Shown here: one piece after another, positions 24,197 to 28,989 of the stretch
Position numbering within the stretch: the first letter of the stretch is position 1
How the letters are laid out: every line of letters starts with the position of its first letter
Source of the DNA: Parcubacteria group bacterium LiPW_15
GTDB lineage: Bacteria; Patescibacteriota; Minisyncoccia; UBA6257; 2-01-FULL-56-20
Direction: 5' to 3'
DNA: 64,000 bases
Assembly: GCA_007375645.1 (NCBI GenBank)
Contig: VMER01000001.1
Span: 273,211-337,210 of the forward strand
Made by a program: the position numbers and the translations under genes
The notes under the pieces: generated by a model
The model's input: the letters and a program-made list of their open reading frames with translations, nothing else
The model's database searches: none
What the model was told of the DNA's origin: nothing

Positions 24197-24207
24197 TAAA
24201 GCGCCTG

Positions 24208-24321
24208 CTTTGTGCATATCTTTGATACGCAAACAAAGCCAGTGCCGAGTACTCGCGGCGTCCCGTTTTGTGCAAATCTTTGATTCGCAAACAAGAACGC
24301 AATCCCGAGTATTCCCTCGGG
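24208..24321. repeat. Imperfect tandem direct repeat, 2 x ~57 bp (tttgtgca.atctttgat.cgcaaacaa...cgagta.tc), in the csoR leader
   Basis: Copy 1 at 24208-24265, copy 2 at 24266-24321, about 75% identical. Confidence 0.7.
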
Positions 24322-24484: not shown

Positions 24485-24988
24485 TTATTCTCTAATCGAA
24501 ATTAGGCGCCCTTGCTCCGGTTCAAGTTCAATACGAAAAAGATATTGGTAGCCATAACGTTTTTTCATGTCAATCAACTTTAGTTCATCTATTCTCCTAT
24601 TCTTTCGATTCCAGTGACCCTTCACCTCAATAGCCACCAAATTATTTTCTGGCGAATTTCTTTCCCCGCGATCTGGTGTCCGCCGGTGGATGATTATATC
24701 TGGGAATATACTATCCCCACCAGAATTCTTCTTTGTAACTTGACCGTCTCGGTTATATTCGATATCAACATTCCAAGTTTTAAAATATGGTTTTAGATAG
24801 TTGGTTAGATGTGCGGAAATGGATTCCTCTTCGGCCTCAACCCTTATCAAGCCAAAATCATCTTTGTATAAGTTTGATAATGCCTGCGTTATGCACATCG
24901 CTATCTCTGCCTCGGTCATAGGATGAATACAAAATATTATTTTATTTAAAATTTCTGCGTAGCAGGTACAAATTCCGTCCAAAAACAA
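24485..24988 (-). CDS. Small PD-(D/E)xK (restriction-endonuclease-fold) nuclease; candidate effector of the ATPase operon
   Basis: Motif ...VDIEYNRDG...SIFPDIIIHRR(x19)LVAIEVKGHW = E ... PD ... EVK. 14 nt downstream of the ATPase gene. TTG start at 24988 (alternative ATG at 24919). Confidence 0.55.
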   Translation of the reverse strand: MFLDGICTCYAEILNKIIFCIHPMTEAEIAMCITQALSNLYKDDFGLIRVEAEEESISAHLTNYLKPYFKTWNVDIEYNRDGQVTKKNSGGDSIFPDIIIHRRTPDRGERNSPENNLVAIEVKGHWNRKNRRIDELKLIDMKKRYGYQYLFRIELEPEQGRLISIRE

Positions 24989-25002
24989 AGTTGAAATTAT
25001 AT

Positions 25003-26760
25003 TTATATCTCTCTATATTCCTGCCTAAGAAATGGGGCTTCCCTAGTAAACGTAGCCCTAACCTTCTTGCGATAATCAAAGTCAAAATCTTTTACCGACG
25101 AATCAAACTCGTCTTTGTTTATTGTTACGATGTATTGGAATTTAGGTTTCTTAAGTGAAGCAGCATTAAGATAATTTAAGGCTCTACTCATATCATCCTT
25201 GCCCACAGAAGCAAAAATGTTGTCGTGGATTAGGAAGCCAAGGTGTCTCTTGGAAGTATAAGTATTAAGCATCAGGAGAACGTCGTAAATAAAAGTCTTA
25301 ATGCGATTTATGCCAGAACTTCCATCTAGTTTTATCCTGTAATCAAAATTTATGAATTCTTTGCCTTTTTCATTAACTTCGATTTGGAAATGGTATGCCT
25401 TATTGCCAGCAATAAACTCGTGGATCTGTTCCAAGTCTTTTCTGAAAGATTCTATTTTTATCGATAGGCCAATGAGCTGCGCATCTAATGCCTCTATAGC
25501 AGCTTGTCTCTCGCGCATAATTCTTTTATGCTCCCCTTTCTTGGTAGTAAGCATATTATATGCAGAAGAAAGCTTATCCAGCTCGCTGTTTTTTTCTCGG
25601 AAAATGATAATTGCACTTTTCAGCTCTTCTATTCTTTCGGGAGCTGTTGTTTTCGAATATATCTTCGCGATCTTTTCATCGAGTTCGTCTATGCGTATTT
25701 CTAGCTCATTTATCTCTTTATTCAAATCCTGAAGCTTTTCCGTCATCAGACCATTCTGAAATGCCTGAACTTCAAGCTGGAAAGCTTGAACTTCTTCAAA
25801 TGACTTGTTGACCAAATCTCCCAAGCCCTTTTTAAACTGGTTGTATATAGCTTTTATTTCGGCAGAATTTACTTTTTCAACCCTGGGCAAACTTTTAATC
25901 TGTCTTACAACATATTCTCTCGCAACCTTTTCGGAAACCAGCCTTCTAATTTCTTCTTCGAGATTTTTTAATTCTTGTTGTGTCTGAAGCACCGCTTCTC
26001 CTGGTTGTAATTTTTTAATCGAAAAATCCAACTTTTCGACCCTATCCCTCAGCTCGTTGAGATACACTTCAATATCTTTGGGGTCGACATTCTCTTGGCG
26101 AATGTCATCGCGCAAAGCCTTCATCACCTCGGTTATACTATCCAACTTTTTGTCAAAGCTCTTTATCTTGTCCACCAAGGCTAGATCAAAATCAAAGAAA
26201 TATAGATGCGGTTTAATTGCGTCCCCAAAATATCCCTTAGCCGACTCCGTGTAGGGGTAAAGTATATTGTTATACGAAGTTCTTTCGTCTCTGATAGCCA
26301 AAGATAACAAGCTGCGCAAGGAGGGTCTCTCCTTTATGGCTGAGTCCCTAAAGATTAGATCTTCCACATACTCTTTCGCATCTTCAGCTTTCTCGAACTC
26401 TTTTTCTTCCTGCGCATCAAACACAAAGACGTTATTTTTCTCACTAGTGCTCCTTTTTATTGTGAGAGCCTTGAGGGACTTATCGGTTTCTATCTCTAGT
26501 TCCAAGCATAGGAAAATTTGGGGGGATAAAACAGCGGAAGGAATTCTATCCACCCTGCTATTTTTTAGATCTTTGAACAAGCAAAAGTTAATCATTTCAA
26601 TGAGCATGGATTTCCCAACGCCATTCATCTTTTTTGCCTCTATCTGGTTCTCGTTCTTCTCAGATTCCTCCCCGATAATGAAATTCAAACCAGTAGAAAA
26701 TTCTATTGGCTGAATGTCGTTAAAGGTGGGTTCGAAGTAGAACTTTTTCAGGGTTATCAT
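25003..26760 (-). CDS. Coiled-coil ABC/SMC-like (RecF/Rad50-type) ATPase, 585 aa
   Basis: N-terminal GLNFIIGE...KMNGVGKSMLIEMINF (Walker A); ~350-aa heptad-rich Glu/Lys/Leu coiled-coil middle; C-terminal DGSSGINRIK (signature-like) and LGFLIHDNIF (Walker B). ATG overlaps the upstream gene stop (ATGA). Confidence 0.75.
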   Translation of the reverse strand: MITLKKFYFEPTFNDIQPIEFSTGLNFIIGEESEKNENQIEAKKMNGVGKSMLIEMINFCLFKDLKNSRVDRIPSAVLSPQIFLCLELEIETDKSLKALTIKRSTSEKNNVFVFDAQEEKEFEKAEDAKEYVEDLIFRDSAIKERPSLRSLLSLAIRDERTSYNNILYPYTESAKGYFGDAIKPHLYFFDFDLALVDKIKSFDKKLDSITEVMKALRDDIRQENVDPKDIEVYLNELRDRVEKLDFSIKKLQPGEAVLQTQQELKNLEEEIRRLVSEKVAREYVVRQIKSLPRVEKVNSAEIKAIYNQFKKGLGDLVNKSFEEVQAFQLEVQAFQNGLMTEKLQDLNKEINELEIRIDELDEKIAKIYSKTTAPERIEELKSAIIIFREKNSELDKLSSAYNMLTTKKGEHKRIMRERQAAIEALDAQLIGLSIKIESFRKDLEQIHEFIAGNKAYHFQIEVNEKGKEFINFDYRIKLDGSSGINRIKTFIYDVLLMLNTYTSKRHLGFLIHDNIFASVGKDDMSRALNYLNAASLKKPKFQYIVTINKDEFDSSVKDFDFDYRKKVRATFTREAPFLRQEYREI

Positions 26761-27002
26761 TTTTTCTTTAAAATATGAGGGCTTTTAAACAGTATGAGGT
26801 CGTTCATGAATAAAAACGTAACAGCATAAAGCATGGTTCTAAAGTTAAGTCCTCCGAGCTGCTTCCTTATTGTGGAATACAAATCAAAAATCGTAATGCT
26901 ATGCTTTTTATTAAGTAATTTCAATATCAAAAAACCCGTATACACGCTAGACGAGCGCACATCTTGTTCGGAAGATATCAGCAGGTTATTCTCGAGTTTC
27001 AT
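26757..27002 (-). CDS. 81-aa hypothetical protein, translationally coupled (ATGA overlaps on both sides)
   Basis: ORF with 4-nt overlaps at both ends; no recognisable motif. Confidence 0.5.
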   Translation of the reverse strand: MKLENNLLISSEQDVRSSSVYTGFLILKLLNKKHSITIFDLYSTIRKQLGGLNFRTMLYAVTFLFMNDLILFKSPHILKKK

Positions 27003-27535
27003 AGTTCAAGCGGGTTTGGGAAAATATTACACTTTACCAACTCATTAAAAAGATAAAATCGTACCGCCGCTTCGTCGTAATCTTCTTTTATCGGTAAGGC
27101 TTCAAAATGCTCAATCAGCTTCGCAGTTAGCTTGCTTAACGCAGTTATCGGGTTGTTCTCGGATTCTTTTAATACTTCTTCGCTTCTGCGTCTTAAGGTA
27201 ATAGCGATTTTATCGGCGGTAGTTTCCGAAATATCACTTTGTTTTAGCGCCTCTTGATAAAATGATCCATAGTGAGGGAGAAGATCGCTATATTCTTTTT
27301 TTAAGGCTTCTTTAAACTCTGAAAAATTATTTAACTTTTTGTCGATATCTTTTTCGCTCACTTCGCGGCTATCAGCAACCCCTTCCGACAGGACGGAGAG
27401 CACAGAGATGACTTTCATAATAGAGAGCATCTCCGTTGAGGCGTTCTGGGCAACCTTGCCTAAATAAACATTGCCGACAATATTCAACGCCCTATCTCCA
27501 CTACTTTTCTGAACATTTTTAATTTCCTCGCTCAT
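26999..27535 (-). CDS. 178-aa all-alpha-helical acidic protein (candidate middle/adaptor component)
   Basis: No TM; Glu/Lys-rich helical composition; its start overlaps the upstream gene by 17 nt. Confidence 0.5.
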   Translation of the reverse strand: MSEEIKNVQKSSGDRALNIVGNVYLGKVAQNASTEMLSIMKVISVLSVLSEGVADSREVSEKDIDKKLNNFSEFKEALKKEYSDLLPHYGSFYQEALKQSDISETTADKIAITLRRRSEEVLKESENNPITALSKLTAKLIEHFEALPIKEDYDEAAVRFYLFNELVKCNIFPNPLEL

Positions 27536-27713
27536 GGGAGTCGCTTTTTACAGAGTTTTCAGAAATTACATTTAAAGCGCTGTCTCCCTTAGACTGTTGT
27601 TTATTGACCTGCTTATTCTTCTGGCTCCTGACTGTGATGTGAGCGGTAATGCCCCCGCTAATTGCTCCGACAATCACGCTGATAATTAGATTCCAAATAT
27701 CCAAATTTTGCAT
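27519..27713 (-). CDS. 64-aa single-TM peptide, first gene of the operon
   Basis: MQNLDIWNLIISVIVGAISGGITAHI TM followed by a polar basic tail; ATG start. Confidence 0.4.
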   Translation of the reverse strand: MQNLDIWNLIISVIVGAISGGITAHITVRSQKNKQVNKQQSKGDSALNVISENSVKSDSHERGN

Positions 27714-27861: not shown

Positions 27862-28539
27862 ATGCTCAATAAACTCTGGGCAAAAGAAAAGGTGCTCATC
27901 AGCCTTTCTGGTCTCATTGCCGCCCTAAGCGCGTTGTTTTTAGATATCCCAGTCCCCCAGATCGAAGATGCGAAAATTGCCCTAGCAAATGTACAATTTT
28001 TCTGGTTAGTGCTTTTGACAATCAGCCTAACTAAACTCTTTTTCAGCCTTATAGATTTGACAATCAAGACCGAAAAAGAAATTAAGAAAAAATATGATCT
28101 CCCCATTGGGGTTTTCTCGATGACGTTAGCCACTATTCTTCTTATGGTGCTTGGTAATTTTTGGAAATATATTTTTGACCTGTATGGAAAATCTTTTTGG
28201 GGATTCATGGACATCGTCTTTCCAGAGCTAGTTGCCGTGTCATGCGTTCTTCTGCTTCTTTTCGTAGAGAAAAAAAGAAGTAGATTCACTAGATTTTCCT
28301 ACATCATCGTCCTCTCGTTTGTACTTGGCCTGCTTATAGGCCTAGCAGGAATTTATATTCAGGAGGCATTAATTGGATATTTTTATTTTTATTGGCTCAA
28401 TCTGATATTCCCCGGCGCAACCATAATCGTAGCTCTGGGATTAATGATATTTTCTTACCTGAAGAAAAAACCTTTATTTTCAGCTCTCCCAAAAAGTTCG
28501 GCCTACGGCAAAACACTCACTGCCCAGCAAAACACATAA
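27862..28539 (+). CDS. Polytopic membrane protein (~6 TM), function unknown, divergent from the ATPase operon
   Basis: 225 aa, hydrophobic segments throughout; AT-rich. Confidence 0.5.
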   Translation: MLNKLWAKEKVLISLSGLIAALSALFLDIPVPQIEDAKIALANVQFFWLVLLTISLTKLFFSLIDLTIKTEKEIKKKYDLPIGVFSMTLATILLMVLGNFWKYIFDLYGKSFWGFMDIVFPELVAVSCVLLLLFVEKKRSRFTRFSYIIVLSFVLGLLIGLAGIYIQEALIGYFYFYWLNLIFPGATIIVALGLMIFSYLKKKPLFSALPKSSAYGKTLTAQQNT

Positions 28540-28695: not shown

Positions 28696-28989
28696 TTAAA
28701 CTAGCTTGACCTCAAACCTCCTTAAACTTGAGCCCGCTGCCCAATTTCGAAAAGCTGCGAGTTGAAATTTAGTATGTTCAGCATCTATTGTATCTGCAGT
28801 CTCGACTTCTATAACTACTTCCTGCGAACCATGTTTCCCGTAAACGTCAGGAATATACATGCCGATCATTGGTGGTTTTGCCTTTCCGGGCAGGTCAGCG
28901 TACACGATTGACCATCCATTAGAAGCAAGGTTGTTTGCCCAAAATGCTACCCCACTATCATGCCTCTCTTGATTTACTTTTAATCTCAT
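28696..28989 (-). CDS. Hypothetical 97-aa protein (possible degenerate nuclease-like PD...EVE motif)
   Basis: IPDVYGKHGSQEVVIEVET; otherwise unassigned. Confidence 0.35.
   Translation of the reverse strand: MRLKVNQERHDSGVAFWANNLASNGWSIVYADLPGKAKPPMIGMYIPDVYGKHGSQEVVIEVETADTIDAEHTKFQLAAFRNWAAGSSLRRFEVKLV

Follow-up and report, generated by a model that had tools for sequence, protein, structure and literature searches.

A Lamassu/ABC-three-component locus in a Parcubacteria genome with a transmembrane peptide as its possible effector, paired with the adaptor through a matching terminal motif

When the gene for a coiled-coil ABC ATPase is preceded by three small genes and followed by a nuclease gene, which of these neighbors, if any, is its effector? 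The question is raised by five minus-strand open reading frames (ORFs) in a 64,000-nucleotide (nt) stretch of DNA, referred to below as the window, from the metagenome-assembled genome of Parcubacteria group bacterium LiPW_15 (assembly GCA_007375645.1, contig VMER01000001.1, positions 273,211 to 337,210). An earlier interpretation made from the DNA alone (the sequence-only reading) took them to be a novel five-gene defense system expressed as one transcript. Our ORF calls reproduced its coordinates exactly, with an overlap of 17 nt between genes 1 and 2 and 4-nt ATGA overlaps at the next two junctions. The analysis nevertheless divides the set. Genes 1 to 4 belong, with little doubt to judge from their profile matches and order, to the known Lamassu/ABC-three-component (ABC-3C) family, and the nuclease is very likely an unrelated hitch-hiker. 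The explanation that we favor on balance is that genes 1 to 4 (27713 to 25003, minus strand) form a short-form Lamassu/ABC-3C abortive-infection system of the DUF2326(YydD)-MC6 family, in which the executioner would be a transmembrane (TM) peptide encoded apart from the protein that stands in the effector position.

The family assignment begins with the product of gene 3, an 81-amino-acid (aa) protein that matches Pfam family PF20293 (MC6, "ABC-three component system middle component 6") with an E value of 5.3e-8 and a score of 33.2 bits, against a cut-off of 27.2. NCBIfam and PHROGs gave no match for any of the four small proteins in question. The 585-aa ATPase encoded by gene 4 matches PF10088 (DUF2326; 5.3e-22) and AAA_23 in Pfam, and among the PADLOC models it matches both PDC-M68B (2.6e-47) and the LmuB model PDLC03859 (1.2e-10), the latter with query residues 14-564 aligned to positions 14-597 of 611. 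The ABC-3C systems were reportedly defined by Krishnan et al. 2020, and our statements about them draw on the names of Pfam families and on later work citing that paper. ABC-3C and Lamassu are now regarded as one superfamily, with the gene order LmuA (effector plus C-terminal domain, CTD), LmuC, LmuB (PMC10586767; 10.1101/2025.06.23.660979). The window has the same A-C-B order: a small middle component, MC6 being one of the ABC-3C families of this kind, sits between the gene in the effector position and the ATPase gene as LmuC does, and in related loci the MC6 gene is likewise kept directly upstream of the ATPase. Lamassu and ABC-3C had in fact been named as the nearest architectures from the start, a suggestion borne out by the MC6, LmuB and PDC-M68B matches. 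The accompanying remark that the partner sizes fit no canonical layout gives way to the same evidence, as the MC6 and LmuB matches together with the gene order place genes 1 to 4 inside the superfamily.

Within the superfamily, the ATPase most resembles the type II short form (LmuA-LmuC-LmuB; DdmABC), which has an SMC/Rad50-like ATPase with a short coiled coil. The short Lamassu class is described as having an LmuB of about 600 aa with a non-canonical Walker B, hhhhD[Q/S/T/E] (PMC12663957). At 585 aa, without a CxxC zinc hook (its sole cysteines are residues 60 and 85) and with a non-canonical Walker B of its own, the window protein fits this class. A Walker A near the N-terminus and a signature and Walker B at the C-terminus had been predicted and were located (Table 1), but the Walker B Asp is followed by an Asn that replaces the catalytic Glu. 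Across 39 sequences D513 and N514 never vary, and the form hhhHDN recurs in 117 of 120 homologues, making it a family trait; homologues at E<=1e-10 numbered 191. The usual H-loop His, too, seems to have given way to another residue (T-I-N). Such changes suggest that the ATPase is a switch that binds ATP but hydrolyzes little or none of it.

How constant is this gene set? For comparison, 133 related loci, 56 from genomes (one genome per species) and 77 from JGI metagenomes, were searched by tblastn with the window proteins; individual loci, with labels running from L001 to L150, are cited by L-number where needed. In about 50 of the 56 genome loci, the genes that directly precede the ATPase gene encode homologues of the 178-aa and 81-aa proteins; the hosts include the candidate phyla radiation (CPR), Bacteroidota, Firmicutes, Proteobacteria, Cyanobacteriota and others. 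The arrangement recurs in every metagenome locus where the region is present. The three closest relatives of the ATPase (79%, 59% and 60% identity) lie beside the same four genes and no nuclease. As had been proposed, the ATPase has conserved partners in the three small genes upstream of it. The genes that flank the set vary between loci: those of the window are CopA/CsoR, and those of L142 are IF3/SmpB and a serine recombinase. Judged by this patchy distribution and these differing flanks, the locus is mobile accessory DNA and not housekeeping, in keeping with the accessory, defense-type character first ascribed to the DNA around the ATPase.

The same observations bear on the possibility that gene 4 encodes a housekeeping DNA-repair ATPase of the SMC/Rad50/RecN type served by small partners. 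Similarities to Rad50 and SbcC in NCBIfam and PHROG point in that direction, and Lamassu itself descends from SbcCD (PMC12663957). These similarities are weak, however, and the NCBIfam matches lie far below their curated cut-offs. The patchy occurrence across phyla, the unrelated flanks, the polymorphic effector domains described below, the low GC content of the locus, the relatives on IMG/VR viral contigs and the listing of the family as a PADLOC candidate all argue the other way, and we regard a housekeeping role as extremely improbable. A housekeeping family with conserved chromosomal synteny was also the finding by which the sequence-only reading had expected its defense proposal to fall; what we find instead is differing flanks and weak Rad50/SbcC similarity.

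The most obvious candidate effector is the nuclease encoded downstream of the ATPase, and according to this alternative all five genes would make up one new system. The nuclease gene is on the same strand, 14-83 nt beyond the ATPase and in the same low-GC stretch; ATPase-plus-nuclease pairings are common in defense systems, and the protein in the LmuA position has no enzymatic domain. The enzyme itself is much as it was first described, with the PD and E-V-K of a PD...EVK motif in place. The invariant residues of its family are E31, D52, P73-D74 and E98-x-K100. Its AlphaFold2 model is confident (predicted local distance difference test, pLDDT, 91), and the best Foldseek matches in the PDB, all weak, are to Cas4-family proteins, SSO0001, Hjc and tRNA-splicing endonucleases; the model thus predicts a PD-(D/E)xK fold whose structural relatives are all distant. 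The length of 167 aa and the 14-nt gap assigned to it at first probably need correction. All 18 homologues are 138-154 aa long and start at the equivalent of M24 of the 167-aa ORF, so that the gene probably has the shorter extent given in Table 1, and the gap to the ATPase is then about 83 nt. Consequently, the claim of a single five-gene transcript loses its basis as regards the nuclease, whose co-transcription or translational coupling is not to be inferred from spacing of this kind. A scan for promoters and terminators was uninformative, giving fewer promoter-like sites than shuffled sequence and none dividing the nuclease from the ATPase.

The company kept by the nuclease elsewhere speaks against this alternative. 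No homologue is encoded in the 133 related loci or in four further loci examined around the three closest ATPase relatives (137 in all). Of the conserved set that had been expected, the 178-aa and 81-aa genes therefore stand and the nuclease drops out. Homologues of the nuclease are instead found appended to unrelated defense operons: after a set of DEAD helicase, DNA methylase and HATPase_c_3 genes, between hsdM and hsdS of a type I restriction-modification system, and after an OLD-like ATPase-TOPRIM gene with DUF2130. In turn, other genes fill the nuclease slot beside related ATPases, for example a HEPN-like gene in L143. Absence from related loci, combined with homologues in other defense operons, marks the nuclease as a promiscuous defense-associated add-on and not as the effector. 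Its separateness from the four-gene system is, on this comparative evidence, very likely, and a five-gene system with the nuclease as effector of the ABC ATPase is correspondingly improbable. Small PD-(D/E)xK genes of this type are better treated as mobile add-ons than read as the effector of whatever system they adjoin.

Several further observations concern the nuclease and its slot. In the three unrelated operons, its homologues lie 3-25 nt from the neighboring gene (L134-L136, L138, L139), and small nucleases of this PD-lambda-3A-like type may be general "embedded" auxiliary nucleases. The protein matches the PADLOC model PD-Lambda-3_A (3e-21) and shares its PD-(D/E)xK core. In PD-lambda-3 (Vassallo et al. 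2022), three genes make up an abortive-infection system annotated "Nuclease, HEPN" (PMC9519451 supplement; PMC13190303), whereas the window has only the A-like gene, and the PADLOC scan of neighboring ORFs detected no B or C component. A tblastn search of a phage collection with the nuclease returned one unannotated match. Downstream of the ATPase, L143 (5759-6325 and 6335-6940) encodes a 188-aa protein whose RNKIAH motif is HEPN-like, and L006 (2792-3331) has an ORF of 179 aa, unrelated to it and unmatched in PADLOC; variable accessory genes seem to use the slot as a landing site.

If the nuclease is set aside, attention shifts to the protein in the LmuA position, which we call the adaptor. 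The window adaptor consists of an N-terminal motif region of about 30 aa followed by an all-helical CTD. It has no enzymatic effector domain, and thus departs from LmuA as defined by an N-terminal effector domain fused to the CTD. Its residues 33-174 are homologous to the C-terminal ~140 aa of proteins of 308-341 aa encoded at the same gene position, and an exhaustive HMMER search for the family gathered 164 cluster representatives, whose lengths fall into one class of ~174-199 aa and another of 311-342 aa. In the long forms, the N-terminal half is a SMEK_N domain in 21 of 24 cases (E ~1e-37) and HNH_2 in 2 of 24; SMEK_N also matches the PADLOC Aga_REase model (8e-25), that of a restriction endonuclease effector associated with prokaryotic Argonautes. 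With SMEK_N or HNH on most members, the mainstream form of this family uses a nuclease effector. A helical CTD shared by swappable effector domains is a further likeness to Lamassu/ABC-3C. A third type of N-terminal domain on the same CTD, about 200 aa long and without a Pfam family (sub-threshold CTD9 match), occurs in L033/L085 (4744-5769; Shapirobacteria) and their relatives L083 and L089. The short forms (170-201 aa), which have the CTD only, are represented by the window and 21 other non-redundant loci, mostly from CPR.

What the short forms have in place of an effector domain is a small gene upstream. Every short-form adaptor with complete context is preceded by a translationally coupled ORF of ~48-86 aa, overlapping or abutting it, that encodes one hydrophobic helix followed by a basic stretch (the window, L001-L009, L022, L038, L057-L059, L061-L065, L067-L069, L086, L095, L132 and L142-L144, of which the L057-L132 entries are metagenome loci and L142-L144 contig look-ups; L071, cut at a contig end, keeps the peptide tail only). 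No such peptide was reported upstream of any long-form locus. The 64-aa product of gene 1 had been called a TM peptide, and a single hydrophobic helix (Kyte-Doolittle maximum 1.88) was indeed found in it. A short N-terminus, predicted to lie outside, leads into the helix, the basic stretch and then a tail. The basic residues after the helix predict that this tail is cytoplasmic, which would put it in the same compartment as the adaptor N-terminus. The helix carries a glycine zipper (Table 1), and 15 of 20 such peptides have GxxxG in theirs, which suggests, from sequence, that these helices self-associate.

The feature of the locus that is truly unusual, and that the sequence-only reading overlooked, is that the peptide and the adaptor end and begin with the same motif. 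A G/N/S-rich motif of ~16-24 residues, with a shared segment of 10-25 aa in individual loci, is common to the C-terminus of the peptide and the N-terminus of the adaptor and has the usual form [QK]-x-S-x-G-D-x-S-P-N-[IV]-x-G-D-x-N-S; the 21-mer from L005 reads TKGKNSPVINGQAEKNHFGDN. No other ORF of the window contains the motif. What is shared changes from locus to locus: the peptide and adaptor copies read GDSALNVI and GDRALNIV in the window, GDRAIN and GDGAKN in L143, and GIGSVRN and GMGNVKN in L007. The alignment of the two window copies to each other scores 45, whereas shuffles average 21.9 (z 5.2, p 0.0015). Over 22 non-redundant loci, the mean Smith-Waterman score (BLOSUM62) is 60.2 when the pair is cognate and 34.4 when it is not; a total as high as the observed one did not arise in any of 200,000 permutations (p<5e-6), and with composition-preserving shuffles 20 of 21 loci gave p<=0.0065 (median z 7.3). 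Independent divergence after a single ancient duplication predicts no excess among cognate pairs, so the excess implies either concerted evolution or selection for matching. In the window, five of eight identical amino-acid positions use different codons, and across the loci this holds for 105 of 247 identical residues, rising to more than half once three DNA-identical loci are set aside, which indicates that the similarity is kept at the protein level and is not merely recent conversion. In those three loci, the two copies are identical over 23 (L005), 19 (L038) and 24 (L065) residues, and the underlying DNA repeats match at 62 of 63 positions in L005 and 57 of 57 in L038.

Two observations on these repeats stand apart. 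The near-DNA-identical direct repeats, ~57-72 nt long, fall within 5017-5751 of L005 (Falkowbacteria), 5067-5760 of L038 and 1237-1975 of L065, with a period of 87-88 nt in L005 and L038. In L005, moreover, the peptide ORF would continue in frame into the adaptor ORF but for a single TAA, such that stop-codon read-through would yield a fusion protein. Read-through or frameshifting was considered as a general mechanism and rejected, since the frames agree only in L005 and are out of register in the window and L038. An all-in-one fusion of TM helix, motif and CTD was likewise sought among family members of 205-285 aa, which turned out to be truncated SMEK forms or HNH fusions, none of them a TM fusion.

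A motif matched between neighboring genes has a precedent. Amyloid signaling motifs were discovered by the rule that the motif at the C-terminus of an effector equals that at the N-terminus of the adjacent sensor gene (10.1101/2020.01.06.895854), and the matched terminal motif described here is, by analogy, the genomic signature used to define amyloid signaling pairs. One such pair, Bab/Agp of E. coli, has been shown experimentally to provide abortive-infection phage defense (10.1101/2024.11.07.622273). The fungal HET-S/NWD2, bacterial Bell/NLR (BASS1-10) and E. coli Bab/Agp (BASS11) pairs resemble the window locus in having adjacent, collinear and often overlapping genes, in a motif that is C-terminal in a small membrane-targeting protein, N-terminal in its sensor-side partner, G/N-rich and L-poor, and in alternative architectures in which the effector is fused directly. 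They differ in that the window sensor is a Lamassu SMC-like complex acting through a CTD adaptor instead of an NLR/TPR protein, that its putative effector is a bare TM helix instead of a Bell/HeLo domain, that the window motif is shorter, with Pro and Lys among its residues, and that the hosts are mostly CPR. In numbers, BASS motifs are ~25 aa long, rich in G/N/Q/V/I, poor in K/P/L and prone to beta structure, whereas the present family spans 10-25 aa with N at 18%, S 13%, G 12%, K 11%, I 8%, P 3.5% and L 1.5%. The literature that we searched contained no link between Lamassu or ABC-3C and amyloid signaling.

Put together with what is known of Lamassu, these observations suggest how the system might work. 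In the solved complexes, the LmuA CTD is an oligomerization domain that LmuB2-LmuC sequesters (10.1101/2025.03.14.643221; 10.1101/2025.06.23.660979), and upon sensing of DNA ends LmuA is released, its CTD tetramerizes and the N-terminal effector becomes active (10.1101/2025.03.14.643221; 10.1101/2025.06.23.660979; PMC12663957). By analogy, the ATPase dimer and middle component would hold the adaptor through its CTD until phage DNA ends or replication structures are sensed, whereupon the adaptor would be freed and oligomerize. Its N-terminal motifs, thus brought together, would pair with the matching tails of the peptides, or template them; clustering of the glycine-zipper helices would then permeabilize the membrane and kill the infected cell. 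That the TM peptide is the effector coupled by the motif is the part we consider reasonably probable. A more specific and more tentative possibility, which we would still bet against, is that the coupling is prion-like: an amyloid or beta-zipper motif on the adaptor would nucleate and convert the identical tail of the peptide, passing the signal from a Lamassu-type SMC-like sensor to a TM-peptide executioner and ending in a membrane lesion.

Alternatively, the peptide may be a constitutive anchor, with a beta-zipper between the motifs tethering the sensor to the inner membrane, for instance to meet injected phage DNA, and killing being done by something else or not at all. The matched motifs would be expected just as much under such an arrangement, the peptide is very small, and membrane-localized defense nucleases such as SNIPE exist (PMC13190303). 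Yet the peptide-and-motif module replaces SMEK and HNH nuclease effectors at the exact effector position and is swapped like a cassette, no other effector gene is conserved, and glycine-zipper helices suggest self-association; we therefore think an anchoring role unlikely. A little less likely still is a scheme in which the two copies do not bind each other at all, both being ligands of one pocket on the ATPase/MC6 complex that compete for sequestration and co-vary with their receptor. A common receptor predicts the within-locus similarity equally well, and Lamassu does operate by sequestration and release, but no candidate pocket is known, and homotypic pairing is the more typical setting for identity that is almost perfect over 19-24 residues, as it is in three lineages.

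The executioner-peptide reading must also be weighed against a number of observations that count against it. The within-locus similarity on which it leans could stem from a single co-evolving pocket that binds both tails, or from repeated local gene conversion without function, and the motif is shorter than a BASS motif and has a conserved Pro and flanking Lys, residues in which BASS motifs are depleted. The case for equating the adaptor and LmuA CTDs is made by gene position, helix content and common fusion partners: none of 62 adaptor-family members matched Pfam CTD1-12 even at E<=1, the AlphaFold2 model of the adaptor, built from a three-sequence alignment, shows six to seven helices after the N-terminal tail at low confidence (pLDDT 53.9), and the Foldseek matches of that model (Mcl-1 and similar, E>0.2) we treat as meaningless. 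With an Asn after the Walker B Asp, the cycle of the ATPase may differ from that of the LmuB proteins studied so far, and a PDB sequence search with the 39-sequence ATPase profile returned coiled-coil noise only. PDC-M68 is a PADLOC candidate only, its A model matched no protein here or in a SMEK-type locus, and both the sub-family and its motif are known from sequence alone. Finally, toxicity of a lone 64-aa TM peptide is presumed.

The distribution of the TM-type systems provides a view of how the module moves. In a neighbor-joining tree of 88 ATPases, drawn without support values, 20 of the 22 TM-type systems fall in one CPR-rich clade, and the other two, L038 and L022, branch separately within the SMEK-type systems, giving at least three separate positions for the TM type; because these two sit apart, peptide and motif together resemble an effector cassette that can be swapped. 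In the same tree, the TM-type L038 is sister to the L033/L085 group, whose adaptors carry the third type of N-terminal domain. As to carriage of the whole locus, two of the closest relatives have large serine recombinases beside them (L142, 7186-8763; L143, 1-1001), and six IMG/VR viral contigs (L145-L150) encode distant relatives of the ATPase at 29-33% identity, both consistent with transfer on mobile elements or prophages.

Table 1. Positions of the genes and motifs in the window (numbered from its first letter)
Feature	Length or residues	Position	Strand	Basis or remark
Gene 1, TM peptide	64 aa	27519..27713	-	ORF call
Gene 2, LmuA-position adaptor	178 aa	26999..27535	-	ORF call and homologues
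Gene 3, middle component MC6	81 aa	26757..27002	-	Pfam
Gene 4, DUF2326/YydD ABC ATPase	585 aa	25003..26760	-	Pfam and PADLOC
PD-(D/E)xK nuclease	144 aa	24485..24919	-	ATG at 24919; longest ORF 167 aa, to 24988 (TTG)
TM helix of the peptide, NLIISVIVGAISGGITAHITV		27630..27692	-	glycine zipper G16xxxG20G21
Motif copy at peptide C-terminus, NKQQSKGDSALNVISENSV		27549..27605	-	
Motif copy at adaptor N-terminus, NVQKSSGDRALNIVGNVYLG		27458..27517	-	
Walker A of the ATPase, KMNGVGKS	residues 44-51	26608..26631	-	
Signature-like motif of the ATPase, DGSSGINR	residues 479-486			
Walker B of the ATPase, FLIHDN	residues 509-514	25219..25236	-	

The surroundings of the locus in the window agree with the first description in that the GC content drops to 0.37-0.41 over 25-29 kb, compared with ~0.49 around it, and no tRNA gene was found nearby. 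A search for att-like repeats flanking the low-GC stretch gave nothing convincing. Two other ORFs lie in this stretch: one of 97 aa (28696-28989, minus strand) has weak similarity to AHJR-like restriction endonucleases and Cas4 (E 0.0045 and 0.046) and no counterpart in related loci, and one of 225 aa with several TM segments (27862-28539, plus strand) has no family match. On the other side, a 33-nt direct repeat, 88% identical with a spacing of 58 nt, lies at 24204-24294, either at the 5' end of the gene for the CsoR-like metal repressor beside CopA or upstream of that gene, and may be an operator pair.

How much of this is new? The class of system is known, as is the family in the form of a PADLOC candidate; as far as we have checked, what appears to be undescribed is an effector split from its adaptor and coupled to it by a co-evolving terminal motif. 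Against the Lamassu/ABC-3C systems in general, the window differs in having no effector domain on its LmuA-position protein and a separate TM peptide with a matching motif instead, in a CTD outside Pfam CTD1-12, and in its hhhHDN Walker B. A described parallel is Lamassu Clade O (Haudiquet et al.), in which an effector-less LmuA accompanies intact LmuC and LmuB, the effector being "seemingly lost" (PMC12663957). The window shares the effector-less LmuA with LmuC and LmuB, but here the effector seems relocated, not lost; we compare the two by description only, and PMC12663957 mentions neither membranes nor TM peptides.

Lamassu is among the most widespread of bacterial defense families, and the survey that recognized a clade with a lost effector left that loss unexplained (PMC12663957). 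Our analysis suggests that, in at least one sub-family, made up of the window and 21 non-redundant loci, the effector is probably not lost but encoded apart, in a peptide of ~50-85 aa that ordinary annotation misses. If the homotypic templating described above proves to be true, it would join SMC-based immunity with amyloid signaling, two fields that have so far been separate, and would account for "effector-less" Lamassu clades. Amyloid-type signaling would then extend beyond NLR/TPR sensors and into the reduced genomes of CPR/Patescibacteria, whose defense repertoire is poorly known.

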